Part shown: positions 4,194 through 48,924 of the stretch, one piece after another | Layout of the letters: each line of letters opens with the position of its first letter | How positions within the stretch are numbered: the first letter of the stretch is position 1 | Sequence record: NC_049438.1 | Reading direction: 5' to 3' (one strand) | Source of the DNA: Acinetobacter phage vB_ApiM_fHyAci03 | DNA: 64,000 nucleotides | Program-made: the position numbers and the translations under genes | The notes under the pieces: model-generated | Told to the model about the DNA's origin: nothing | What the model saw: only the letters and a program-made list of their open reading frames with translations | Databases searched by the model: none

Positions 4194-5312
4194 TTACTCC
4201 AATAATGCCTTTTCCCACATCGCGTACACACGAGATGGATTGTATTGTTCATATAATGCATTAGCACGTGCAACACGTTGTTCATATGTGTCTTCGAACT
4301 CATTTAATGCTTTAGAATATGCGGCAATAATGTCATTAGTTGTCATACCTTCTTCAATCCAAACAACTTTAGTTAATGGATCATGTTCAAGTGTTGCATG
4401 ACTATAACCACGTTTGATGAGTTGAAGTACAGGCACACCTTTCTCAATAGCTTCCAATGAACCATGTTCAATAGTGCCTGTGTCATGACAAGTGTTAACA
4501 AGGACTAGCGCTTCGGCTAATGTTGCCTGGATAGTTGCACGCGGAACATCAATATGTACAAAAGGCTCTTTGAGATATTTCTTAGGTGGTGCCCATTGAC
4601 TTGGCAGGAATGCAGCAATTTTATGGTGAGATTTACTCATTGCTTCTAAAGCTACATTTGTCTTTCTGAATTTCAAATCATAGCGCTGTGCTGAAACTAC
4701 AACACCATTAGAAGGCAGCACTTTAGGACGATTTTCGATTAATGTAGCCGGGAAGAAATTATCTGAGATGATGTCATGCTCTTGCCAATAATCGAAATCA
4801 ATTGCACCTTTAGCAACTTTGATATTCATTTTTGAATACACTTGAGCCGTAAGGTCTTTAAATGTTTGAGTTGGCACAAGATTCTTGCCGCCATTTTGGT
4901 GAATAAAAACAGCAGTACGCCAAATTGAAACAAGTGTTCGAATACTAGGATCGAGTGGCGTGGCTAAAAGGTTTCGAATTTTAGGTCCTAACCCGAGTTT
5001 GATCAAGCCATTGATAACACCTTTTGCACCTTCAACAGTAACAACTACATCATATTTTGAATAGTCCAATTGTGAAATTTTGTCAATGATTTTGTTGCCG
5101 TGTTTGATAGTGTACTTGTCCACAATTGGGTAGTCAATAGATATTGCATTGACTTTATATGGACCAAAGTTCTCATCGCCGAACGCCATGTAATCGATTT
5201 CATGGTGCTTACTCATTGTTTTGATGAAATTCAATTGAACTGATTCTAAGCCACCGGAAATATAATCAGCATTAAATGTAATAAATCGACATGGAATGTA
5301 TAAAATTTTCAT
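4194..5312 (-). CDS. GT-B fold glycosyltransferase (paralog 1), candidate DNA hydroxymethyl-base glycosyltransferase
   Basis: 372 aa; C-terminal GT4-like motif EHGSLEAIEKGVPVLQL; ~50% identical to adjacent ORF; sits where T4 has beta-gt. Confidence 0.7.
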   Translation of the reverse strand: MKILYIPCRFITFNADYISGGLESVQLNFIKTMSKHHEIDYMAFGDENFGPYKVNAISIDYPIVDKYTIKHGNKIIDKISQLDYSKYDVVVTVEGAKGVINGLIKLGLGPKIRNLLATPLDPSIRTLVSIWRTAVFIHQNGGKNLVPTQTFKDLTAQVYSKMNIKVAKGAIDFDYWQEHDIISDNFFPATLIENRPKVLPSNGVVVSAQRYDLKFRKTNVALEAMSKSHHKIAAFLPSQWAPPKKYLKEPFVHIDVPRATIQATLAEALVLVNTCHDTGTIEHGSLEAIEKGVPVLQLIKRGYSHATLEHDPLTKVVWIEEGMTTNDIIAAYSKALNEFEDTYEQRVARANALYEQYNPSRVYAMWEKALLE

Positions 5313-5367: not shown

Positions 5368-6492
5368 TTATTTTAAAACATTTTCCCAGAGTTTGAAATA
5401 TGCTTCTTCGTTAAATTTGTTGTAAAGATATTCAGCCCGTGCAACACGTTGTTCATATGTATCTTCAAACTCATTTAATGCTTTAGCATACATCTCGATT
5501 AATTCTTGAGTACTTGCACCTTCTTCAAATTCAACTCGAACAGTATTAGGGTCGTACTCAAATGTAGCATGGTTGTATCCTTTTTGAATGAGTTGAAGTA
5601 CTGGCGTACCTTGAGAAATAGCTTCAAGCGATCCATTTTCTACTGTACCAGTGTTGTGGCACGTATTGACAAGAAGTTTGGCAGTTGAAATTTCTTTTTG
5701 TATGGTTTGTCGTTTAGCATCGATAATGACCCAGTGATCTTTCTCCAGCCATTTTTTGCCAGGTGCCCATTTCGACGGACAGAATGCGATCTTAGGCCCA
5801 TCAAATAAATCCATTGCACCGAATGCAACATTAGATTTTCTGAATGCATTGTCAAACCGTTGGGCTTGTACAATATGCCCTTCAGAATGAAGGACTTCAG
5901 GTTTATTTGCAATCAAAATCGGCGGATAAAATTCATCTGCAATAATATCATGATTTTGCCAATAATCAAAATCAATGACTTCTGCGGCAATACGTTCATT
6001 CATTTTAGAATAAACCTTTGCAGCTAAATCTTTGAACGTTTGAGTAGGAACGATATTCTTTCCGCCAAGTTTATGGACCATTACTGCATTGTTCCAGCAT
6101 TGTACGATACCACGAACTGATGGGTCAAGTGGAGTAGCAAGAATATTACGAACCTTTGAAATTTGTCCAAGTTCGGCTAATGTATTAAGAACCATTTTAC
6201 TGCCTTCAATGATCACAATAGCATCGTACCGATCCCAGTCTGTGATTTCTTGAAGTTTGTATTTGATTTTATACGCATGTGCGGTAGTGAACTTTGCGCC
6301 AATAGGTTTATCAATTGATAATTCGTTAACTTTAACACTGCCGAAGTTTTCGTCGCCAAATGAAACGTAATCGATATCATGCACTTTTGACAAGTTGACA
6401 ATAAAATTATACTGAACCGCTTCAAGGCCGCCAGCAACACGATCAATATCAAATGGCACTGAACGGCAAGGTAAGTATAAAATTTTCATATT
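5368..6492 (-). CDS. GT-B fold glycosyltransferase (paralog 2)
   Basis: Paralog of 4194..5312 (MKILYLPCR..., ENGSLEAISQGTPVLQL); likely start at second Met (6492) abutting upstream kinase gene. Confidence 0.7.
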   Translation of the reverse strand, partial: NMKILYLPCRSVPFDIDRVAGGLEAVQYNFIVNLSKVHDIDYVSFGDENFGSVKVNELSIDKPIGAKFTTAHAYKIKYKLQEITDWDRYDAIVIIEGSKMVLNTLAELGQISKVRNILATPLDPSVRGIVQCWNNAVMVHKLGGKNIVPTQTFKDLAAKVYSKMNERIAAEVIDFDYWQNHDIIADEFYPPILIANKPEVLHSEGHIVQAQRFDNAFRKSNVAFGAMDLFDGPKIAFCPSKWAPGKKWLEKDHWVIIDAKRQTIQKEISTAKLLVNTCHNTGTVENGSLEAISQGTPVLQLIQKGYNHATFEYDPNTVRVEFEEGASTQELIEMYAKALNEFEDTYEQRVARAEYLYNKFNEEAYFKLWENVLK

Positions 6493-10717: not shown

Positions 10718-10784
10718 AATTAAAAATCCTAAAAGAGTTGTGATACGACTTATAATATCACAACTCTCAATTAAAGTACAATGC

Positions 10785-13680: not shown

Positions 13681-14853
13681 TTAAAAGTCAAATAAATCTT
13701 CTAATGAAGAACGTTTTTCTGCTTGCATACCTGCAGATTCACACATACCTTCCAAAGGTTTCTTATATGTTTTTGTAAACAATGACATAACGTCAATATG
13801 TTTTAAAACATCTTCACGAATTTCTTTTGGAAGTTCGTTACCTGATGGCCATGCAATAACTTTGTCGCCGAATGGATTTCCAGGTTTCAAAGGCAAGATC
13901 ATAACTTTATCACCTTCACTAATATCCGGTAAGTTATCGAATGCCTTAATTGCACGTCGATACGTCAAAACACCACGAATATGACTAGGACATTTCAATC
14001 CAGGGAAGCCATTATCATCATATTTTGCAATGTTATTTGCAGTTCTTACACCTGCAATAACTTTGTAATCAAGATTTCTAAATTCATTTTCAAATTTCTT
14101 GAAATAGTCTTGAAGTGGCTTTTCACCTTCTTGGAGCATAATACGAATACTTTCTAACAATGCATCTTTGACCGCTTTAGGTGTAGATGATTGTTGAGTT
14201 TCCATGCCCATGATTTTCAAGTATGGCTCTTTAAAACGAGTACCTTCCATGTCATACACATTTAATGCATAACGTTTCTTAGCTCGCCAGAATCCACCAA
14301 TACCGTTTGAACCGAGTGGTGGACATGCAATTGCTTCGCGATCCATGAACATTAATTGCTCATAGTTGTTAAGATATTCGCACAGTTCTTGGAAGCCTGC
14401 ATTAATAACTGGTTCGATTTTCTTTGAACCTACTGCATCTAAGAAGTCAACTAATTTTTCAGTTGATGCAAATTTTTCAATGCCAACTTTATCAATGAGT
14501 GGACTCAATTCAATATACAATGAATCTGTATCACCATAAATTACATACGGATGATTAGTTGTTCCACACATTTCATTAAGGTATGCATTAATTTTTCGTT
14601 CTGTCCATTGAAGGACCAATTGTCCGAAAATAGTAATCGCTTCTGCATTACGAAGATCGTAAAATCTAAAGTAGATATTGCCGAGTGCACCATATAATGA
14701 ATTAATCAATAATTTTCGATTAATTTGATTCGTATCACACAAAACAATATAGTTTTCACATTCATGCTCAAGTTCAAGCAATTCTTCTTGTGAAAGTGTT
14801 TTGAGATATTCGATTTCGGATTCAGTTAAGTCACGACTAAAATCTAATTTCAT
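13681..14853 (-). CDS. 43: DNA polymerase gp43 C-terminal subunit (43B: palm motifs B and C, thumb)
   Basis: 390 aa; KLLINSLYGALG (motif B), YGDTDS (motif C), colinear with T4 gp43 residues ~520-898; own GGAG SD + ATG. Confidence 0.9.
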   Translation of the reverse strand: MKLDFSRDLTESEIEYLKTLSQEELLELEHECENYIVLCDTNQINRKLLINSLYGALGNIYFRFYDLRNAEAITIFGQLVLQWTERKINAYLNEMCGTTNHPYVIYGDTDSLYIELSPLIDKVGIEKFASTEKLVDFLDAVGSKKIEPVINAGFQELCEYLNNYEQLMFMDREAIACPPLGSNGIGGFWRAKKRYALNVYDMEGTRFKEPYLKIMGMETQQSSTPKAVKDALLESIRIMLQEGEKPLQDYFKKFENEFRNLDYKVIAGVRTANNIAKYDDNGFPGLKCPSHIRGVLTYRRAIKAFDNLPDISEGDKVMILPLKPGNPFGDKVIAWPSGNELPKEIREDVLKHIDVMSLFTKTYKKPLEGMCESAGMQAEKRSSLEDLFDF

Positions 14854-15368: not shown

Positions 15369-15661
15369 TGGTTTAATAACTGATTGATTGAACGTTCGTT
15401 ATGTATAGATTCATTAAGAAGCTGTGCTATAACACGATAATCTGTTTCACTATTGCATCGAGCGTTAAGAATTGTTTGTGCATTTGTGCGACACATATCA
15501 AACGTTTTGAAGAAACTGTCATAACGAGGCAAACGAATTGCATTTAACACATTAGGTTTCCAAACAACATTGAACTTGCCATTGACTTCATCAATAAAGA
15601 ACAACATAGTTTCAATAGATTGAGTATATGTGTACTCTTCGGGCGATGTATAAACTCTCAT
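15344..15661 (-). CDS. hypothetical protein (105 aa) inside gene-43 split
   Basis: ORF track; 4-nt overlap with upstream ORF. Confidence 0.5.
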   Translation of the reverse strand: MRVYTSPEEYTYTQSIETMLFFIDEVNGKFNVVWKPNVLNAIRLPRYDSFFKTFDMCRTNAQTILNARCNSETDYRVIAQLLNESIHNERSINQLLNQCLWELGL

Positions 15662-16002
15662 CGACTTACCTCTGCATCAAAATCTACAAATTTAGCTCTA
15701 CATTCATGATAGACACTATGCATTAAATCTAACACTCCATAATTGAATTGAGAATTTTCTGATTTCCCAAGCAGAGCTCGGGAGCGTGCCGCTATTTCTG
15801 AATTTATAAATTCTAGAACTTCTTTACCTTGTGGATATCGTAACATCTTAGGCACGAATTGTGCGTCAATAGTAATATTACATCTGCCTCTTAACACAGT
15901 AGCTATAAATGGATAATATTCTATCCAATGCTCGCCTGTCGAGCTTGATATTACTCTATTTTGTCCATACATAATAACCTCGTAATATATCAAATTAATC
16001 AA
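15658..16002 (-). CDS. hypothetical protein (114 aa; alternative start at 15972 with GAGG SD)
   Basis: ORF track; preceded by conserved promoter/leader repeat and GC hairpin. Confidence 0.5.
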   Translation of the reverse strand: MINLIYYEVIMYGQNRVISSSTGEHWIEYYPFIATVLRGRCNITIDAQFVPKMLRYPQGKEVLEFINSEIAARSRALLGKSENSQFNYGVLDLMHSVYHECRAKFVDFDAEVSR

Positions 16003-16016
16003 ATCATCTAATTTCG

Positions 16017-16119
16017 GCGCACAGCGCCGGCTGCGCAGCAGCTATTCTGTACCGAACGGCAGATATAATTAGAGCGGTGAACCGGTAGAACCATTATAAC
16101 ATCAAAATTTTGCAAAGCA
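16017..16119 (-). repeat. copy A of ~58-bp conserved promoter/leader block + GC-rich palindrome (GCGCACAGC-GCCG-GCTGCGCAGC)
   Basis: 16061-16118 is reverse-complement-identical to 47922-47979 apart from 1 nt; followed by TTCGGT and GCTGCGCAGC-type hairpin. Confidence 0.7.
16093..16119 (-). promoter_or_regulatory. middle-promoter-like element (TGCTTTG + TATAAT) upstream of ORF 15658..16002
   Basis: Minus-strand TGCTTTG (16113-16119) and TATAAT (16093-16098); identical to the 47921 copy over 53 nt. Confidence 0.45.
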
Positions 16120-16167
16120 CTCGTGTGCTTTACGAATATAGATCATTTTATGAACACTCAAACCAAA

Positions 16168-16395
16168 TCATAACAATTCTTGGATTCTTCTAGATTTATA
16201 CTGCATAAGTTCGGTACGTGTCATTCCTGAAGTGTCCTGTTCACACTGCGCGTTAACTGTTTTAATCATAATGAGGGTATTATGATTTATATTATCTATA
16301 GGAAGTTGTCGGCAGTGTGTGTCTGACATAACTATTCTGCATGGATATTGCTTTGCGATATCTCTAATACTTTCATAATATTGCTTAAGTGACAT
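16168..16395 (-). CDS. hypothetical protein (75 aa)
   Basis: ORF track. Confidence 0.45.
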   Translation of the reverse strand: MSLKQYYESIRDIAKQYPCRIVMSDTHCRQLPIDNINHNTLIMIKTVNAQCEQDTSGMTRTELMQYKSRRIQELL

Positions 16396-16466
16396 ATCAA
16401 ATCTCCATAGATTTTAGAATAATTATATCATAATCAAAAAGCAAAGTAAATATTTTAGACAAAAAT

Positions 16467-16488
16467 AAAGGACCCATTTGGGTCCTTT
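16467..16488 (-). terminator. rho-independent terminator (bidirectional)
   Basis: AAAGGACCC-ATTT-GGGTCCTTT perfect 9-bp stem. Confidence 0.6.
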
Positions 16489-16501
16489 AGATAAAATGAA
16501 A

Positions 16502-16858
16502 TTATACAACGCTATACATTGTAACCGCAATAGGTAGAATTTCATTTGTCAATGTATTAAGGCTACCTTCAGTGATAGGAGTTCCTTGGAAACGATGAAC
16601 GATACGTTCAATTTCAACAACTTTTCGTTTATTAGTTTCTCGATCACGTGGATCAATTACCAATTTGATATTATCATCTTTAAATTCCAGTGCAAGGATC
16701 CCGAGAGTAATTTTTGCATCTAACGAGCGTGTAGAACGAGTATCAATTACTGGAGCTGCTGTGTTAAATTGTAATTTAGATTGCTGGATCATAATATCTC
16801 TACGTACTTTGTAAGTTGATAGGATTATTATATCAATAACCCTATCACATGTAAACAA
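16502..16858 (-). CDS. hypothetical protein (118 aa, TTG start abutting 43A stop; real start possibly internal Met)
   Basis: ORF track only; no SD at TTG. Confidence 0.3.
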   Translation of the reverse strand: MFTCDRVIDIIILSTYKVRRDIMIQQSKLQFNTAAPVIDTRSTRSLDAKITLGILALEFKDDNIKLVIDPRDRETNKRKVVEIERIVHRFQGTPITEGSLNTLTNEILPIAVTMYSVV

Positions 16859-16859
16859 A

Positions 16860-18368
16860 TTATTTCATTAATTTTTTAATCACTTCGGCATTACGCTTTG
16901 CAGCCATCATTTTCTTCTTCCATTCTTTACGTTGGAAGAACACTTTAGTAATTTCTTGTGGAATGATACCTTGCTTTGTCTTCGAATACATCATACCGCT
17001 TGGCGAGCATGAGAATTCATTTGAAGGACTCGGTGCAATCTTATTAATGAAATCACTAAGTTTAGGCGGTGCAAATTGTCCTGCAATTGTTTCTGGGCTA
17101 ATGTTTACCTGGCGAATGATTGACGGATACAGAGATGTTACGTCAAACGACAAAACATATTTGTACGCACCAGGCACAGGGTTTTTAACATATGCGCCTT
17201 CATACGGTTGTCGAACATTTGGCTTAGCTTCCGGTAAAACTAAGTGCTCGGCTTTTAATGAGTTGAAGATAATTGCATCCCAAGTTTTCACAGGACTCAT
17301 TACTGTTGCAATATTCATTCGAGCGTAATAGCCCATTGAAATTGACAGGTTGATAAATCCTCGTTTTGCGTCAATTGCTTGTACACAGTACACATCGACA
17401 ATGTTATATGAAATATAACGCTGGTGGTTTGATTCACGTAATTTGTCGATTGGCCCATCATATTCTAATTTGTTGATGCCAGCTTCATATTCTGCAATAT
17501 AATCGAGTTTATATGATGGCTGTGAAGTAAACGCAAACTTTTTGTATAAATCCATGTAATCGAGAATCATGATTCCAGAAATATTGAAAATTTCTTTATC
17601 TCCATACATGTTTTGAATGACTTTTGACGTTACTTTACCAAAAGGACTTAAACGTTTCATGTTCGAGACGCCAAGAACGTTTTTGATACGATTTACAATA
17701 TATGGAATATCAAATCCTTCAACGTTCCAACCGGTGAAGATGACAGGAGTTTTTTCTTCCCATAAACGAATGTATTCTAACAGCATTTCCTTTTCTGTTT
17801 CGAATGGCATATACACAACTTTATCTAAAATATGTTGTGGAACTTCATCGCCGCCTTCATCAATTGATTTGCCTGCAAGAACCGGATCCCACTTTGAAAC
17901 ACGTCCACGTTGAGAGTTCAACAAGTCAAACACGTAGTATTTGTCATCAATAGAATCATAGTGTGTAATTGCATCAATTTCATATTTTGCAAAAGTCGGA
18001 TTCGGGAACTCTCCTGCTGTTACCTCGATGTCACAGTTTGCAACACGAATTGCATTTCTGTTATATGTGATGTCCTTTTTTCCATACACATCAGAAATAT
18101 ATGCAAGTTTGAAGTCATCCATACCTAAAATTTCTACAATTCCACGTGTCTTTTGCATCCAGTCTTTAGCCTCACGAATGGAGCTAAAACGTTTAGGAAT
18201 ACATGGCTTGCCATAAATGTCTTTATATTTTGATTCAACGCCTTCTTTGGCATGAATGAACAATGTAGGCTCATATGGAATTTCACGAACTTTTTCGACG
18301 CCATTTTCCACATAACGCTCTTGAATAAGGTCACCAGATTGTTCAACTACTAGATAGAAATTATCCAC
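16860..18368 (-). CDS. 43: DNA polymerase gp43 N-terminal subunit (43A: 3'-5' exonuclease domain and palm motif A)
   Basis: 502 aa; FDIEV exo I, DVTSLYPSII motif A; ends ...AEVIKKLMK* exactly where T4 gp43 continues; GTG start with AAGGAGA SD. Confidence 0.9.
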   Translation of the reverse strand: MDNFYLVVEQSGDLIQERYVENGVEKVREIPYEPTLFIHAKEGVESKYKDIYGKPCIPKRFSSIREAKDWMQKTRGIVEILGMDDFKLAYISDVYGKKDITYNRNAIRVANCDIEVTAGEFPNPTFAKYEIDAITHYDSIDDKYYVFDLLNSQRGRVSKWDPVLAGKSIDEGGDEVPQHILDKVVYMPFETEKEMLLEYIRLWEEKTPVIFTGWNVEGFDIPYIVNRIKNVLGVSNMKRLSPFGKVTSKVIQNMYGDKEIFNISGIMILDYMDLYKKFAFTSQPSYKLDYIAEYEAGINKLEYDGPIDKLRESNHQRYISYNIVDVYCVQAIDAKRGFINLSISMGYYARMNIATVMSPVKTWDAIIFNSLKAEHLVLPEAKPNVRQPYEGAYVKNPVPGAYKYVLSFDVTSLYPSIIRQVNISPETIAGQFAPPKLSDFINKIAPSPSNEFSCSPSGMMYSKTKQGIIPQEITKVFFQRKEWKKKMMAAKRNAEVIKKLMK

Positions 18369-42279: not shown

Positions 42280-42354
42280 TGGCAGGCCGTCTTCGATTTG
42301 AACGAAGATTAACGGAGTTGGAGTCCGTCGTGGTACCAATTACACTAACGACCT
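42280..42354 (-). tRNA. tRNA-Trp (anticodon CCA)
   Basis: Hand fold: acceptor AGGTCGT/ACGGCCT (one GU), anticodon arm ACGGA-CTCCAAC-TCCGT, T arm CTTCG-TTCAAAT-CGAAG, discriminator G, CCA encoded; 75 nt. Confidence 0.7.
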
Positions 42355-42443
42355 GTGGCGGAAAGCAATGTAGTCGAAACATAACCGAATTAACGGTCCA
42401 CTCGCTTAGCAGGCGGTGCCAATCACCTTATTGGTTTACTTTC

Positions 42444-42719
42444 CTACATTAAACATAATGATGTGACAAGCCATTGATTTTGGCGTCGCATATTATCAGT
42501 GAGGCGGCGAGAACGTTCTTCATCTTCTTTGCGACGTTTTTCCCGCTCAGCCTCTTGTCTTGCAATTCTTTTACGTGTCTCTTCTTCAATTGATCGTTCA
42601 CTATGGCCGCTATATCGTGGAAATCCAGTGCTATACGAAGGTGAATCAAAACCTGTTCCATTACGCATTGCCATTTCATTCATGCGTCTTGAGAAATCAA
42701 CATATTGAGAAACGCTCAT
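42444..42719 (-). CDS. small highly basic Arg/Glu-rich protein (91 aa)
   Basis: ORF track; GGAGG SD 5 nt upstream of ATG; embedded in tRNA cluster. Confidence 0.5.
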   Translation of the reverse strand: MSVSQYVDFSRRMNEMAMRNGTGFDSPSYSTGFPRYSGHSERSIEEETRKRIARQEAEREKRRKEDEERSRRLTDNMRRQNQWLVTSLCLM

Positions 42720-42821
42720 ATTTCCTCCAAGGAATATGGTGGAGTGTGATGGAATTGCACCATCCTAATCCTGCTCTTCAGGCAAGCGCTAATCTATCTC
42801 AGCTAACACTCCAAAAGTAAA

Positions 42822-42898
42822 TGGTCTCCGTAAAATGATTTGAACATTTGACCCTTCGCTCCCAAAGCGAATGCTCTACCAGGCTGAGCTATACGGAG
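42822..42898 (-). tRNA. tRNA-Pro (anticodon UGG)
   Basis: Hand fold: CTCCGTA/TACGGAG acceptor, TAGCTCAGCCTGGTAGAGC D arm, anticodon loop TTTGGGA, T loop TTCAAAT, CCA encoded. Confidence 0.8.
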
Positions 42899-42903
42899 TT
42901 AAA

Positions 42904-42994
42904 TGGCGGAAGGTGAGAGGATCGAACTCTCAAGGCTTTTACACTCGACTGTTTTCAAGACAGTTCCCATCGCCGGCCGTTGGGTTGACCTTCC
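42904..42994 (-). tRNA. tRNA-Ser (anticodon UGA), type II
   Basis: Hand fold: GGAAGGT/ACCTTCC acceptor, anticodon arm ACTGT-CTTGAAA-ACAGT, long variable arm, T loop TTCGATC, CCA encoded; 91 nt. Confidence 0.75.
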
Positions 42995-43183
42995 AGTATT
43001 TCAACGTCGCACTTAAGGTAGCGTATCACCCTTTTAAACATTGACGACCTAAGAACGTTTACACCGACAAGGCGACTTAGGGCCCTTTACGTCAATTTGG
43101 CTCCCCATCTGGGTAACGATCCCAGCTAACCACGGATTAACAGTCCGGCCCATGCACCATGCTCGGGTTCTGAGGAATAAAGT

Positions 43184-43268
43184 TGGAACCGCAAGGAGGA
43201 ATCGAACCTCTCACTTCCTTCCCACTTTTTAAGTATCTGCTTAGAAGGCAGATGTGGGGACATGCGGC
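43184..43268 (-). tRNA. aberrant tRNA-like element with UCU (Arg) anticodon hairpin, no recognisable D arm
   Basis: Intact T arm (GGTTCGATTCC), acceptor 3' strand + CCA, anticodon stem-loop TCTGC-CTTCTAA-GCAGA, but only ~10 nt between acceptor and anticodon stem; 85 nt. Confidence 0.35.
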
Positions 43269-43282
43269 TTAAATTCTTAAAG

Positions 43283-43353
43283 TTCTGGCACGAGGAATCG
43301 AACCTCGGTGACTGGAGTACAAAACCAGCATAATACCACTATATGATGCCAGA
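43283..43353 (-). tRNA. tRNA-Thr (anticodon UGU), CCA not encoded
   Basis: Hand fold: perfect 7-bp acceptor TCTGGCA/TGCCAGA, anticodon loop TTTGTAC, T arm CGAGG-TTCGATT-CCTCG. Confidence 0.7.
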
Positions 43354-43666
43354 ACTTTAAAAACTTGATAATGTTATTTATATAACCATAAAGGCACCGT
43401 CATGACCACTCATCAAGAACACAGTGAGTTAAAACTTTTTGTGATGAGATTAATAAGGTTTGATCGAAAACATTTGAACTCTGCTAAATAAAAACTTTGA
43501 TCTTTAAGATTTTAGCTTTGAACTTTAGCCTTGGGATAATGTACAGGATTCGCGCTCGGAAACCTATATCATTATCAAAGTTCTATAACCTTAGAAGTTA
43601 GCCGGATTTAGGAATACCGGCTCGAACCCTCTACAGTTTTTGATCATGACGATTAAAATTTACCTA

Positions 43667-44233
43667 TCAGTCGATAACGATTGTAGGATTTGTTTCAGTT
43701 AAAATTGCATCGAATTCAAGATCGAAGAAATCAATTGTAGATTTGAGCTCATCAATTTGTTCTTGAATTTCCATAATTGTAGGTTTTTCTCGTTTTTCCA
43801 TTAATTGCTTGAGCTCATCATCATGTGCGGCTTTAGACAATTTAACTTCATAATCACGTTCGATGTTAGCAAATGTAGCACGAGCACTAGCTAGCTCTTT
43901 AACTAAACGTGTATACAAAGCTTTAAGTCGAGGTAAAATATGTGTACGATACGTTAATGCATCGTTGATAGACATTTGTTCTTTGCCTACGGTTACCATC
44001 GTTTCAAAATTTGCTTTATTGACCTTTTTGCGAAGATCGAATTCTGCATCAAGTTTGTCTTTAATCGATTGAATGTTTTTGCGAGATTTGTCAACAAATT
44101 CAGCAGTTTTGATTCCAGTGCTAATCTCTACACCATTACGGAATACACCACAGAATGTCATTTCACGAAGATTTTCGTCGAAAGACACTTTGTTGCGTTT
44201 AAGTGTTACTAATGCACGAGCGATGGTAGTCAT
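43667..44233 (-). CDS. hypothetical coiled-coil protein (188 aa)
   Basis: ORF track; between tRNA sub-clusters. Confidence 0.55.
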   Translation of the reverse strand: MTTIARALVTLKRNKVSFDENLREMTFCGVFRNGVEISTGIKTAEFVDKSRKNIQSIKDKLDAEFDLRKKVNKANFETMVTVGKEQMSINDALTYRTHILPRLKALYTRLVKELASARATFANIERDYEVKLSKAAHDDELKQLMEKREKPTIMEIQEQIDELKSTIDFFDLEFDAILTETNPTIVID

Positions 44234-44309
44234 TCAAATTTCCTCTAATCAAAATAATCTTTAATTTATGTAGTTAATTATATAACATAAATCATTAAAA
44301 AGCTTTGCT

Positions 44310-44546
44310 TTACGAATAAGTTTGTGTTGGTTCATAAAATAAACGTTCTTTCAACATTCTATCGAGCTTTGCAATTGCGGCAGATCGATTAAGGTACTGT
44401 GAACGTTTATTTGCACTTTCAGCAATTAAACCAGTCGGTAAATGAGTAACACGTACTGCATTAAAGGGGCGATTGACCCATCGACGTGCACCACTTGTTC
44501 TATACTCATCAATTCTCAATTCACTGGGTTTGAATGAATAATCCAT
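44310..44546 (-). CDS. release-factor catalytic-domain (RF/ArfB-like) mini-protein lacking GGQ
   Basis: 78 aa; SGARRWVNRPFNAVRVTHLPTGLIAESANKRSQYLNRSAAIAKL aligns to class-I RF GGQ domain ([35 protein letters not shown]) with GGQ replaced by RRW. Confidence 0.55.
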   Translation of the reverse strand: MDYSFKPSELRIDEYRTSGARRWVNRPFNAVRVTHLPTGLIAESANKRSQYLNRSAAIAKLDRMLKERLFYEPTQTYS

Positions 44547-44559
44547 ATCAATATTCTCA

Positions 44560-44802
44560 TTACTTCAATTTAATTTTGGCTTCAAATACGTAGCGATAAT
44601 TGTTATCACATAATATTTCAGCTCGTTCATATGTTGTGGCCATTCGCAATACTGCTCCAGTATATGAAACGATTGCAAAAACACAATCAGTTGAATCCGG
44701 TGATGCGATATCACCAACTTTAAAACGAAGTTTTCTATAAGTATATTTATCATCATACTTACATAAGAATTTGGCTAAACTTAACGAGAATGTGAATCTC
44801 AT
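44560..44802 (-). CDS. hypothetical protein (80 aa)
   Basis: ORF track. Confidence 0.4.
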   Translation of the reverse strand: MRFTFSLSLAKFLCKYDDKYTYRKLRFKVGDIASPDSTDCVFAIVSYTGAVLRMATTYERAEILCDNNYRYVFEAKIKLK

Positions 44803-44907
44803 AACTTTACCGTCTTCGTTAAAAATTCCATAGATGCTTCGTTGAGAAGTTTTATCTATGCAGTTTCGACAGATCTAATGTTTCATATTTATCCTCATTA
44901 AATTAAA

Positions 44908-44985
44908 TGGTACATGACCTCGGACTCGAACCGAGAGGCTCTTGTTTCTAAGACAAGAAGGTATACCAATTCCCGTCAGTCATGC
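44908..44985 (-). tRNA. tRNA with anticodon UAG (Leu codon CUA) but type-I (short variable arm) architecture; identity uncertain
   Basis: Hand fold: acceptor GCATGAC/GTCATGT (one GU), anticodon arm CTTGT-CTTAGAA-ACAAG, T arm CTCGG-TTCGAGT-CCGAG, CCA encoded; irregular D arm. Confidence 0.5.
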
Positions 44986-45064
44986 ATGGTGGATACTGGG
45001 AGTGCTCGCACCTCCAATCAACTACGTTGTCCGCTGCTTTACTATTTAAGCTAACAGTACCCAA

Positions 45065-45140
45065 TGGAGACGTCGACTGGACTTGAACCAGCATCGTCAC
45101 GGATTTGCAATCCGTCGTATAACCATTCTACCACAACGTC
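45065..45140 (-). tRNA. tRNA-Cys (anticodon GCA)
   Basis: Hand fold: acceptor GACGTTG/CGACGTC (one GU), anticodon arm ACGGA-TTGCAAA-TCCGT, T loop TTCAAGT, discriminator T, CCA encoded; 76 nt. Confidence 0.65.
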
Positions 45141-45147
45141 TTAAACT

Positions 45148-45222
45148 TGGTGGGCCCAGGGAATTTCGAAATCCCAACCTTCAGATTATGAGTCTGCTGC
45201 TCTACCATTGAGCTACACGAGT
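45148..45222 (-). tRNA. tRNA-Ile/Met-like (anticodon CAU) with non-pairing acceptor stem; possible pseudo-tRNA
   Basis: Canonical D arm TAGCTCAATGGTAGAGC, anticodon loop CTCATAA, T arm GGGAT-TTCGAAA-TTCCC, 3' TGGGCCC-A-CCA; but 5' strand ACTCGTG cannot pair with 3' TGGGCCC. Confidence 0.45.
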
Positions 45223-46585: not shown

Positions 46586-47309
46586 TTTGTAATACCTCTG
46601 TGTGAAATAAATTCGAAATTTTCTGTTTAAATTCCTCTAATGTTCCATCATTATGGATGACTGGATCACCTGGTTGCCGTTGAAGTCCTGCTTCAGTAAT
46701 GTGATTGTCTGCATTAGTGTTAGTATTTATACTATCACGCTCTACAAAAATTAATCGTGCGTTGATGAAACGCATAAAATCAATTTCATGTTGTTGACGA
46801 ATGTCTGTGACAATAAAAATCTTCGCGCCATTTGCAAATTCGGTGATGTACTGATTCATCATTAAACGAAGCCAGAAATATTTGTCATAGTGTTCACAAA
46901 CAAGATCTGTGCCTAAAATTTGCATAAGTCTGCGAACTGTCCACGGCTCTATATTTCTATTGATGCTATTAAAAACACTCAAATAACTTTCGAAACCAGA
47001 GGTCAAGTTTTCACGAAGACCGTATTGCTCAATGAGAATTTTAATACATTTTCGAAGCCAATCATTTACATCAGAATTTGACAAAATCAACGGGGATTCT
47101 CTATCGTATGGAGAGTCGCCATTAAAATCAGCAAATGATAAGCTTAACCCAGACTTTGTTGAAAGATTCAATTCAGAATAGGTTTCAAATAATACCTTTT
47201 TGATGGGCAGAGCAAGTGCATATTTGACCGCACCTAGCTCTTCTACCATGTAATCAGCCATAGTGTCTTTGCCACTACGTTTCTTACCTACAATAGAAAC
47301 AATTGTCAT
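46572..47309 (-). CDS. 1: deoxynucleoside monophosphate kinase gp1
   Basis: 245 aa; VGKKRSGKDTMADY P-loop, RRLMQILGTDL, HITEAGL motifs colinear with T4 gp1. Confidence 0.85.
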   Translation of the reverse strand: MTIVSIVGKKRSGKDTMADYMVEELGAVKYALALPIKKVLFETYSELNLSTKSGLSLSFADFNGDSPYDRESPLILSNSDVNDWLRKCIKILIEQYGLRENLTSGFESYLSVFNSINRNIEPWTVRRLMQILGTDLVCEHYDKYFWLRLMMNQYITEFANGAKIFIVTDIRQQHEIDFMRFINARLIFVERDSINTNTNADNHITEAGLQRQPGDPVIHNDGTLEEFKQKISNLFHTEVLQNDRR

Positions 47310-47875
47310 AAGATTTCTCGTTTGCCGTTCATTAACATATCCGAAATACTTTTCCGTGTTTCTATTATAACACCATTTTTTTCTACAGTGAAGTAGCTAT
47401 ATTGAAAGGTTACGTTAGCAAAAATAGCCGGGTCTGATTCTTCTGTGTAATTGAATTCAAGGTCACCAATAACTTGTGGCCACGCGTCATGATAGTGAAT
47501 TGACATAAGTGGTGTCGTTTTATCATTAGATAATATGTGCAGTGTTATAAATTCTGGCAAGACACCAGGATTAGCACCATTATTGTCATGAGTTAGATAG
47601 TTATTGATTGATAGCATCCATGTATAAATGTCTGTCCATGCATCTAGATTTTCATCGATTAGCACGCGGCATACCAATGGCTCAAATTCAAATGTTGAAC
47701 CTGGGCGGTTAGCACGCCCGAGGCCTTTATTGCCTAGTGCCATATTGACTGTTGGTATACTGATACCTGGGATTAATGCAGATTGGACATTGAGTTTGAA
47801 AGCATCGGTGATTTTAGCATCAGGGATGTCCAATACAAAGTTAGTTATGTTAGTTTGGTTAAATTGTAGTGTCAT
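47306..47875 (-). CDS. 3: tail completion / sheath stabiliser gp3
   Basis: 189 aa; synteny 4-2-3-1 as in T4. Confidence 0.6.
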   Translation of the reverse strand: MTLQFNQTNITNFVLDIPDAKITDAFKLNVQSALIPGISIPTVNMALGNKGLGRANRPGSTFEFEPLVCRVLIDENLDAWTDIYTWMLSINNYLTHDNNGANPGVLPEFITLHILSNDKTTPLMSIHYHDAWPQVIGDLEFNYTEESDPAIFANVTFQYSYFTVEKNGVIIETRKSISDMLMNGKREIL

Positions 47876-47920
47876 AATGTGCCTTGTTTAAAATTTGATC
47901 ACTTAGCTTGTTAAGCCCTG

Positions 47921-47947
47921 TGCTTTACAAAATTTTGATGTTATAAT
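47921..47947 (+). promoter_or_regulatory. middle-promoter-like element (MotA-box-like TGCTTTA + TATAAT) in gp3-gp2 intergenic region
   Basis: TGCTTTA at 47921-47927, 14-nt spacer, TATAAT at 47942-47947; part of duplicated 58-bp block. Confidence 0.45.
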
Positions 47948-47953
47948 GGTTCT

Positions 47954-48092
47954 ACCGGTTCACCGCTCTAATTATATCTATTCGGTCGGAGAAGATAGAG
48001 TTTCAGATGATATAGATGTATCTGATATATCTGCATTGAAAATATAGAATATTGTGCTGCGCACAATGATGCGCAGCATCTAATTTATTTCT
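47954..48092 (+). ncRNA. candidate ~135-nt small RNA (promoter to bidirectional terminator) between gp3 and gp2
   Basis: Promoter-like -10 at 47942, no ORF >8 codons, strong terminator hairpin + ATCTAATTTATTTCTT at 48056-48093. Confidence 0.3.
48056..48077 (-). terminator. terminator hairpin immediately after gp2 stop (also 3' end of candidate + strand sRNA)
   Basis: GCTGCGCA-CAATGA-TGCGCAGC perfect 8-bp stem. Confidence 0.6.
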
Positions 48093-48924
48093 TCCATACT
48101 TTTGAGGCTGCAAAACGTTTACCTTGTGATACAAATTGTTGAAGTGGCATTAACACGACATTACCCCAATCAGCAGGTTTAATTTCAACGAATCTGCCTT
48201 TTACATGAGCAGGCAAATATGCTTTAATCATTACATCAGCGCCATTGAAGCCTTTAACTTTTGACCAATCAATTTTAAGCACAGTATTATTTGTGATAGT
48301 TTTTGTAGATGAATAACTTTTTAATAACTCTTCTAAAAATTGTTGTCGTGCTTTAGGTGGAATATAATGCAAGTTAAGGCCATGAAATAAAGTTGTGCCT
48401 GCAACTTTGGAACGGGACGTTCCTAAAAATATGATAAGTGGATATTTATCCCAAAATGGTAACTTATCTTTATGTTTAGCATCATATATGAAAGCATAAA
48501 GTTTACCCGGCTGTGGCTTGACCACAGAGTGTCCTCGGACACCTTTAGCAAGAGTTTCTTTAAACCATTTCTCAGATTTATTGTTTACTGCTGCACCTTC
48601 ATTACGAATTTTTTCTCGCATCGATTGTCTAAAGCTATTAATCAAAATTGCTTCACGTTCTTTAGGTGTCAACTTATTTTTAGGTTTGTTCTTAGCCACT
48701 TCAGCTGCATAAGCGAGCTTGATTTTATCTCTATAACGTGTCATGCTTCTAGTAAAAGTCGCATATGGGATTCCACGTTCTTCGGCAAATGCTTTACCTT
48801 GTACGCCTTTAGCTTTGGCCTTGTACCAATCAACACCAATATTAACCCATGCTAGTTCTTGGCGTGTGATTTTAGGCTGAAGATTTTTTGGCACTTCGGC
48901 TTCATCTAATTGAAAAATACTCAT
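48085..48924 (-). CDS. 2: DNA end-protector protein gp2
   Basis: 279 aa vs T4 274 aa; synteny; basic protein. Confidence 0.7.

Follow-up and report, generated by a model that had tools for sequence, protein, structure and literature searches.

A stretch of 64,000 nt from the genome of Acinetobacter phage vB_ApiM_fHyAci03 (NC_049438.1), referred to here as the window and to the whole of which the coordinates of the two copies refer, carries the same promoter-containing element twice, once within the insert that divides the DNA polymerase gene 43 (copy A) and once between genes 3 and 2 (copy B). The question raised by this locus is what kind of element this is, and whether its presence in the insert is connected with the splitting of the polymerase gene. 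Based upon the analyses described below, we tentatively interpret these two copies, together with those at three other loci of the genome, as transcript-primed replication origins of the type represented by oriF and oriG of phage T4, rather than as a mobile cassette. The probability that we assign to this interpretation is about 0.45; transcription from the sites, formation of an R-loop and function as a primer or origin are what we infer.

A near-identical inverted pair in the window

A repeat search of the window identified an inverted pair at positions 16061–16120 (minus strand) and 47920–47979 (plus strand), which is 60 nt long and complementary at 59 of the 60 positions (98%). The runner-up inverted repeats of the 64-kb window are merely 25–35 nt in length (71–84%), and the similarity between copies A and B is far beyond chance. 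The duplication reported in the initial annotation, with 57 of 58 positions identical, is therefore borne out and can be extended to the 60-nt core. All of the components that had been listed for it were found in both copies, viz. a MotA-box-like TGCTTT(A/G), a 14-nt spacer (CAAAATTTTGATGT), TATAAT, the sequence GGTTCTACCGGTTCACCGCTCTAATTATATCT, TTCGGT and GC-rich hairpins, in this order. The hairpins carry GCTGCGCAGC in copy A and GCTGCGCA...TGCGCAGC in copy B, and the sole mismatch within the core is located in the −30 box (TGCTTTG in copy A and TGCTTTA in copy B). Outside the core the two copies diverge, copy A consisting of two GC hairpins, an AT-rich stretch and an open reading frame (ORF), and copy B of a purine block, an AT-rich stretch and an intrinsic terminator (48054–48079). 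A profile built from the family of elements described below detected just these two sites within the window, the sequence of which is 98–99% identical to T4-like phages of Acinetobacter baumannii belonging to the genus Lazarusvirus.

A family of five loci in Acinetobacter T4-like phages

Blastn searches with copy B as the query against 50,697 phage records gave matches that were confined to the T4-like phages of Acinetobacter, where they were found at 260 places in 56 records (about five per genome), with five places per genome in the ~50 records from Lazarusvirus and Hadassahvirus. In the complete genome of AB-Navy97 exactly five core matches are present. The first of these (16.1 kb, plus strand) lies beside an srd-like gene and is an antisense orphan with a bidirectional terminator at its end; the second (46.9 kb, minus strand) is in the gp43 insert and corresponds to copy A; the third (80.2 kb, plus strand), in the gap between genes 3 and 2, corresponds to copy B; the fourth (118.5 kb, minus strand) is found just downstream of gene 25 and before a uvsY.-2-like ORF; and the fifth (149.6 kb, minus strand) is between rnh and gene 34. 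Three of the five positions (3/2, 25/uvsY.-2 and rnh/34) are between core genes. The same five loci, in the same orientations, are occupied in AbTZA1 (Hadassahvirus) and in the more distant AB1I1M-1, where the rnh/gene 34 gap contains a tandem pair of elements with a period of 91 bp (minus strand, 168417 and 168508 (= 71)), giving six copies at five loci. This constancy of position and orientation in three lineages speaks against a freely mobile cassette. In the phage ZZ1, which is the outgroup by gp43 identity (79–80%, vs 84–90% among the other lineages), homologues can be recognised at four of the five loci, and a profile search revealed no element in its gp43 insert and none elsewhere within 10–76 kb.

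The initial annotation had also considered that the repeat could be a generic middle promoter present tens of times per genome. The whole-genome search, with its five loci per genome, shows that it is not, and T4-type pairs of a MotA box and a −10 sequence number just a handful in AB-Navy97. As no match to a 21-mer of the core was found in 185,579 bacterial and archaeal genomes, the core is not derived from the host. An exact-core scan of IMG/VR detected two known Acinetobacter phage genomes only, other than chance 16-mer matches, and a metagenome scan with a promoter-proximal 19-mer gave eight unrelated bacterial contigs and no further lineage.

The element is ~200 bp long and is comprised of an A/T-rich upstream part, a MotA-like −30 box, an extended −10 sequence, a block of ~45 nt, a purine block and an AT-rich stretch. 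The sequence TGnTATAAT is present in every copy from all four lineages, and at four of the five loci it is preceded by TGCTTT(A/G) at a distance of 14 nt from TATAAT; the fifth locus has TTTACA-N17-TATAAT, with a sigma-70-like −35 sequence. The purine block has the form GA(A)TAG(A/G)G, and a GGA-containing purine block is retained across all lineages. The AT-rich stretch bears GATGTAT-type repeats; mini-ORFs (MYLIY...) that start in this motif in some of the copies were considered and rejected, as they are not kept across copies and lack a Shine-Dalgarno (SD) sequence. The predicted transcript runs into a downstream gene at three loci, including copy A, and ends at a terminator at the two antisense orphan loci, one of which is copy B.

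The elements are, as far as sequence-based prediction can tell, not a known or structured RNA. A search of the whole window against Rfam 15 at the gathering threshold detected tRNAs only, RNAalifold predicted no pairs for 11 distinct copies from three lineages, and single-sequence folding of both predicted transcripts gave z-scores (−1.0 and −1.6) that are not significant; these results together argue against a structured RNA.

Concerted evolution of the core

Within one genome, all loci have the same or almost the same block from the −10 sequence to approximately +45, and this block differs among lineages. In AB-Navy97, the 32-nt block is identical in four of the five copies and one base is different in the fifth. 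The block is GGTTCTACCGGTTCACCGCTCTAATTATATCT in Lazarusvirus and Hadassahvirus and GGTTCTACCCCCTACCCTTCCAATATTATATTT in AB1I1M-1, and two ZZ1 copies resemble the AB1I1M-1 form. Because this C-rich form is common to AB1I1M-1 and the outgroup, the ancestor of Lazarusvirus and Hadassahvirus must have swapped the block at all five loci. By this pattern of sequence variation, the core of the family is under concerted evolution.

The modules downstream of the core are mosaic among the copies. The nearest paralogue of copy A is the copy at the srd locus, which is outside the window, and the similarity between these two extends over 137 nt with 95% identity (AB-Navy97 16083–16217). Since both of them have the same downstream module in three lineages, copy A has been duplicated from the srd-locus copy, or vice versa, and not from copy B. 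Recombination or gene conversion among copies, which had been suggested from the duplication itself, is thus evident from the mosaic modules and from the homogenisation of the core in each genome, but the proposal that copy B was the partner of copy A is not supported, the srd-locus copy being closer.

Comparison with the replication origins of T4

The textbook example of a phage with transcript-primed origins is T4. It has five active origins (PMC3016281), of which oriF and oriG in their minimal form consist of a MotA promoter and an AT-rich downstream unwinding element, where a persistent R-loop transcript primes DNA synthesis (Kreuzer and Brister, 2010; PMC3016281). If the elements described here function in a similar manner, early or middle transcription from the promoter of the element would give an RNA that would remain hybridised to the template in or beside the AT-rich region, and this hybridised RNA, upon processing, would prime leading-strand synthesis.

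The architecture of the family is similar to what is found in oriF and oriG, as in both cases a MotA-type box and a sigma-70 −10 sequence are followed by an AT-rich region within ~100–200 bp, and genes for MotA and AsiA are annotated in related phages. In 40-nt windows between +50 and +110, the AT content of all five AB-Navy97 copies is 72–80%, vs a genome mean of 63%; in copy A and the srd-locus copy, GC hairpins stand before the AT-rich stretch. The purine block of the family is located at approximately +35 to +50, and both oriF and oriG have a similar (A/G)A(A)TAGAG sequence 32–36 nt after the −10 sequence, a likeness that was spotted post hoc and for which the background is ~1 per 5 kb. 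The GA(A)TAGAG-type block 32–46 nt after the −10 sequence, which is common to oriF, oriG and the family, is consequently a lead only. At two of the conserved loci the element is an antisense orphan that has no ORF and is closed by a terminator, and the product is therefore likely to be the transcript or the act of transcription.

The distribution of the loci provides a second line of evidence. The gaps between them on the circular map of AB-Navy97 are 30.8–38.3 kb, and the probability that five random points have a minimum gap that large is 2.5e-5 (1.9e-4 and 5.5e-5 for the other two genomes). In ZZ1, which has no gp43 copy, the corresponding gap is 62 kb, and in the three other lineages the gp43 copy lies at most ~2 kb from the midpoint of this interval (64–68 kb). 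T4 similarly has five sites per genome spread over the map, and in both cases three sites are at transcription-strand switches and two are within the early region. According to the rep_origin features of the T4 record, oriA is at 16.8 kb, oriE at 79.4 kb, oriF (ori-uvsY) at 115.3 kb and oriG (ori-34) at 152.9 kb; oriC is near rI.-1 (PMC3016281). OriF, which uses the uvsY transcript as its primer, is located between gene 25 and uvsY (minus strand), and the family member downstream of gene 25, which is outside the window, is at exactly the same site in the same orientation. OriG (minus strand) is antisense inside gene 34, close to the junction with rnh, and its equivalent position is ~2 kb from the rnh/34 family member, which again has the same orientation. 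Copy B is ~3 kb from the equivalent of oriE but in the opposite orientation, and copy A has no counterpart among the T4 origins. The primers of oriE and oriG are antisense to late genes, as are some members of the family. The main difference is that the five loci share a nearly invariant block of 32–45 nt that is subject to concerted evolution, whereas the T4 origins share no sequence motif (PMC3016281).

A number of observations weigh against this interpretation. The three probabilities for the spacing are not independent, as the genomes are syntenic. The synteny with T4 origins is exact at one locus only, the others being 2–12 kb off and two of them oppositely oriented to the nearest origin, and the AT-rich stretch exceeds the AT content of the genome only moderately. 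When the family profile was compared with oriF and oriG by nhmmer, the matches were weak (E 0.3–0.5) and limited to the promoter part, and nothing was detected at oriA and oriE. The distance from the MotA-like box to the −10 sequence is 14 nt, whereas the spacing in T4 is 11–13, and one locus (TTTACA-N17) is without the box. The first ~30 nt of the predicted RNA are rich in pyrimidines, and such RNA forms the less stable kind of RNA–DNA hybrid. In ZZ1 the gp43 copy is missing, and homogenisation is not seen among the copies that are present. Furthermore, because the T4 origins have no motif in common, the R-loop mechanism leaves the ~45-nt identity unexplained; this identity points to either a sequence-specific factor or mere gene conversion. 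Lastly, literature searches turned up neither a description of the repeat nor a transcriptome for these phages.

A more far-reaching proposal, which we regard as doubtful, is that the Acinetobacter T4-like phages use sequence-defined replicators. In this case, five near-identical cassettes ~33 kb apart on a permuted genome would contain a ~45-nt block that is read by a co-evolving dedicated factor or processing step, and the polymerase insert would be kept for the sake of the origin within it, which divides the largest inter-origin gap into two halves. If this is so, the elements would represent the first consensus origin in the T4 group, in which the firing of oriA, oriC and oriE is listed as an unanswered question (PMC3016281). 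A relative with five near-identical and evenly spaced candidate origins would provide a consensus that can be mutated and a handle on any origin-recognition factor. As these phages are used in therapy against A. baumannii, the control of their replication is also of practical interest. If the elements are not origins, they would still provide an unusual example of the concerted evolution of a small and fixed non-coding set in a lytic phage.

Alternative explanations

The uniformity of the block is also what would be expected of a family of promoters and leaders, or of small RNAs, in which the ~45-nt block serves as an operator or is an RNA segment whose primary sequence is read by a factor of the phage or the host. 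Five transcription units could be placed under one control in this manner, or the two orphan loci could give rise to trans-acting or protein-sequestering RNAs of ~140–170 nt, with the even spacing being incidental. That the block is uniform in each genome and was replaced at all loci at once between lineages fits a co-evolving sequence-specific partner, a promoter together with a terminator is present at both orphan loci, as it is in small-RNA genes, and the GGA-containing purine block occurs in all lineages. However, the copies show no conserved fold, significant z-score or Rfam family, blastn detected no antisense target in the phage genome, and the core is absent from the bacterial genomes that were searched (185,579). 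In addition, neither the even spacing (P ~1e-4 to 1e-5) nor the coincidence with the oriF site is accounted for, and we consider this explanation to be unlikely. A primary role of the element as the mRNA leader of the ORF following copy A is not supported by two of the five loci, including copy B, where the element runs antisense to the adjacent genes, is not followed by an ORF and is closed by a terminator.

The elements also bear a resemblance to the PeSL and PmSL cassettes of T4-like phages, which are composites of a promoter and a stem-loop that are repeated within a genome, are tied to recombination and have been reported at split g43, the PmSLs having a TGCTT Mot box. If the family were of this kind, its members would be ordinary promoters with a stem-loop that are alike through homologous recombination and shuffle neighbouring ORFs, their role would be limited to transcription, and copy A would have arrived in this way. 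The upstream palindrome overlapping the −30 box, the mosaic downstream modules, the indels and homing endonuclease adjoining copy B in some relatives and the lack of copy A in the ZZ1 insert are all consistent with this possibility, and there are precedents for it in the PmSLs with a Mot box of phage nt-1 and in Aeromonas phages with PeSL-like sequences between g43A and g43B (PMC4122927, PMC2839356). However, PeSLs number ~50 per genome, have a degenerate consensus, are found beside ORFans in hyperplastic regions and differ between close relatives (Arbiol et al., 2010, PMC2839356; Comeau et al., 2014, PMC4122927). In contrast, the present family consists of five fixed and evenly spaced loci at the same positions of the core genome in three to four lineages, and its conserved part, a nearly invariant block of 32–45 nt, is downstream of the −10 sequence, in the transcript. 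A PeSL in the published sense is ruled out by this contrast between five conserved loci and ~50 copies in hyperplastic regions. The true PeSL-like early promoters of the window are of a different build, and the antisense orphan loci are conserved, which recombination alone would not achieve; the broader form of this explanation is quite unlikely. The view that emerges from the initial annotation, that a mobile promoter-led unit carried the insert into gene 43 and thereby split it, or that recombination between copies A and B shaped the locus, is highly improbable. The duplication on which it was based is real and the insert of some relatives contains an HNH or other mobile endonuclease, but the outgroup ZZ1 has the split and a six-ORF insert with no element, by which this view is largely refuted. 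Moreover, the insert in the window has no endonuclease or recognisable mobility gene, and the partner of copy A by sequence is the srd-locus copy rather than copy B. Any exchange between these two copies, which are in inverted orientation at a distance of 31.8 kb, would reverse the orientation of core genes, and none of 50 relatives shows such an inversion.

Copy A and the split of gene 43

The entire element of copy A extends from 15982 to 16150 on the minus strand, between 43A and 43B (profile match 16140–16029, E 2.4e-23), and lies between the second and third ORFs of the gp43 insert; its orthologues are found in the gp43 inserts of AB-Navy97, AbTZA1 and AB1I1M-1. It begins with an upstream A/T box TAAAATGATC (16141–16150) that resembles the AAAATTTTGATG spacer located ~50 bp further downstream. 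The sequence AAATTTTGAT occurs 11 times genome-wide vs 1.9 times expected, and six of these 11 occurrences are within the five elements. Reading and alignment of the copies revealed a palindrome, TAAAGCAC-ACGA-GTGCTTTG (16113–16132), whose 3' arm is the MotA-box-like TGCTTTG (16119–16113). In copy A the −30 box is overlapped by this palindrome (TAAAGCAC-N4-GTGCTTTG), of which copy B has a degenerate version; the palindrome lacks a U-tract and was not called by the terminator scan. The extended −10 sequence TGTTATAAT follows at 16093–16101 (TATAAT at 16098–16093), and the 32-nt block GGTTCTACCGGTTCACCGCTCTAATTATATCT (16061–16092) is the predicted initial transcribed region, with +1 at ~16086. 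Downstream of it are GCCGTTCGGTACAGAATAGC (16041–16060), consisting of TTCGGT and the purine block (GAATAG), and two adjoining GC hairpins without a U-tract, GCTGC-TGC-GCAGC and CGGCGC-TGT-GCGCCG (16015–16042), which were identified by folding and represent the module shared with the srd-locus copy. The AT profile then shows an AT-rich stretch with TTAGATGATTTGATTAATTTGATATATTAC (15982–16014).

The initial annotation had placed the cassette directly before the SD sequence and start codon of an ORF at 15658–16002. An ORF is indeed found downstream, but its start is more likely the ATG at 15972 (15658–15972, minus strand, 104 aa), with the SD sequence GAGG at 15981–15978, than the TTG at 16002. 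The encoded protein has no match in Pfam or PHROGs. Two of the five loci, copy B among them, are orphans in antisense orientation with a terminator at their end, and the role of copy A as a leader of this ORF is therefore incidental.

The N-terminal part of the split polymerase, gp43A, is encoded at 16860–18368 and the C-terminal part, gp43B, at 13681–14853, both on the minus strand, the latter with its own SD sequence (GGAG) and ATG. The 2-kb insert between them contains six small ORFs, its own sigma-70-like promoters and a terminator. Searches of the six ORFs against Pfam and PHROGs revealed no function and no endonuclease, and no recognisable mobility gene (Pfam/PHROGs) or intron RNA family (Rfam) was found in the insert. 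In AB-Navy97 (OL770261, 44496–49183), gp43 is annotated as a single coding sequence "interrupted by intron". Because 43A is closed by a stop codon, 43B is provided with an SD sequence and ATG of its own, the gap contains promoters and a terminator in addition to the six ORFs, and there is no match to an intron RNA family, gp43 is by its sequence a split gene that is not interrupted by an intron, and this annotation is wrong. A similar arrangement is known from the Aeromonas phages 25 and 44RR, where the B-family polymerase is likewise encoded by two cistrons and the insert has its own expression signals (PMC2988022). In these phages 43A and 43B are separated by an intercistronic untranslated sequence or a seg endonuclease (PMC2988022), whereas here six small ORFs and one member of a genome-wide repeat family are present.

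The suggestion that the cassette was brought in, or spread, with the gp43 insert is contradicted by ZZ1, which has the same split and an ORF-filled insert without the element. Since the split is present in ZZ1 without it, the cassette did not create the split, which by this comparison of sequences is older than, or independent of, copy A. In AM101, Lazarus, Abraxas and others, the end of the gp43 insert that is closest to 43B contains an HNH or mobile endonuclease.

A strong intrinsic terminator, TAAAGGACCC-AAAT-GGGTCCTTTA followed by a T-run, is also located inside the insert (16466–16489, minus strand). Due to this terminator, the two halves of the polymerase would not be co-transcribed barring read-through, and 43B would have to rely on promoters within the insert, one of which is possibly that of copy A.

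Copy B in the gap between genes 3 and 2

Copy B (47890–48095, plus strand; profile match 47898–48008, E 2.2e-25) occupies most of the 209-nt gap between gene 3 (47306–47875) and gene 2 (48085–48924), both of which are on the minus strand, so that the element is antisense to both genes, and there is no ORF downstream of it. Its MotA-box-like TGCTTTA (47921–47927) is located 14 nt upstream of the −10 hexamer in the extended −10 sequence TGTTATAAT (47939–47947; TATAAT at 47942–47947). These are followed by the same invariant 32-nt block as in copy A (GGTTCTACCGGTTCACCGCTCTAATTATATCT, 47948–47979), with a predicted +1 at ~47954, by ATTCGGTCGGAGAAGATAGAGTT (47980–48002), which consists of TTCGGT and the purine block, and by an AT-rich stretch with GATGATATAGATGTATCTGATATATCTG repeats (48003–48053). 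A 10-bp GC hairpin with a T-rich tail (48054–48079), which was detected by folding and also called by the terminator scan as an intrinsic terminator, would close a predicted copy B transcript of ~140 nt. This terminator is probably bidirectional and serves to end gene 2 as well.

In some relatives a "hypothetical protein" of 43–48 aa is annotated opposite copy B (48003–48134, minus strand, in the window; AB-Navy97 80269–80415). This ORF is wholly inside the element and has probably been annotated in error. In Maestro, Morttis and AC4, a homing endonuclease gene (mobC-like) is present between gene 2 and the copy B terminator. The endonuclease gene of Maestro (80410–81078) is on the other strand from the element and co-oriented with gene 2, and it was therefore ruled out as a gene driven by the element.

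Genome assemblies and other features of the window

A number of public assemblies start or break within the repeat. Position 1 of the AbTZA1 record (MK278860) is at the gp43-insert copy, the AB1I1M-1 record (OQ627712) opens within the rnh/34 tandem pair (positions 1–94), and many fragmented AB1I1*/AB2I* contigs (PP7989xx/PP7990xx) have ends 50–700 bp or less from a copy. The repeat family accounts for the breaks and starts of these assemblies at its sequence. The first assembly of ZZ1 was reported to have "inverted terminal repeats" of 114 bp (PMC4177764), and these may have the same cause.

Sigma-70-like early promoters of the form TTTACA-N17-TATAAT are found in the window at 16827–16855, 2293, 29553, 30624 and 38114 (all minus strand) and at 10751. 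The −10 hexamer of the early promoters is bracketed by inverted repeats of 6–9 bp, the sequence of which varies by promoter (e.g. TGATAGG...CCTATCA and GATACAGTG...CACTGTATC). These inverted repeats match the published PeSL architecture, and their variation looks like covariation for a DNA or RNA hairpin.

A direct repeat of 95 nt with 79% identity (4263–4357 and 5434–5528) is located in two adjacent minus-strand genes for proteins of ~370 aa (AB-Navy97 070 and 071), which suggests that a gene was duplicated in tandem. At least five tRNA genes are clustered among small ORFs at 42283–45216 (minus strand).

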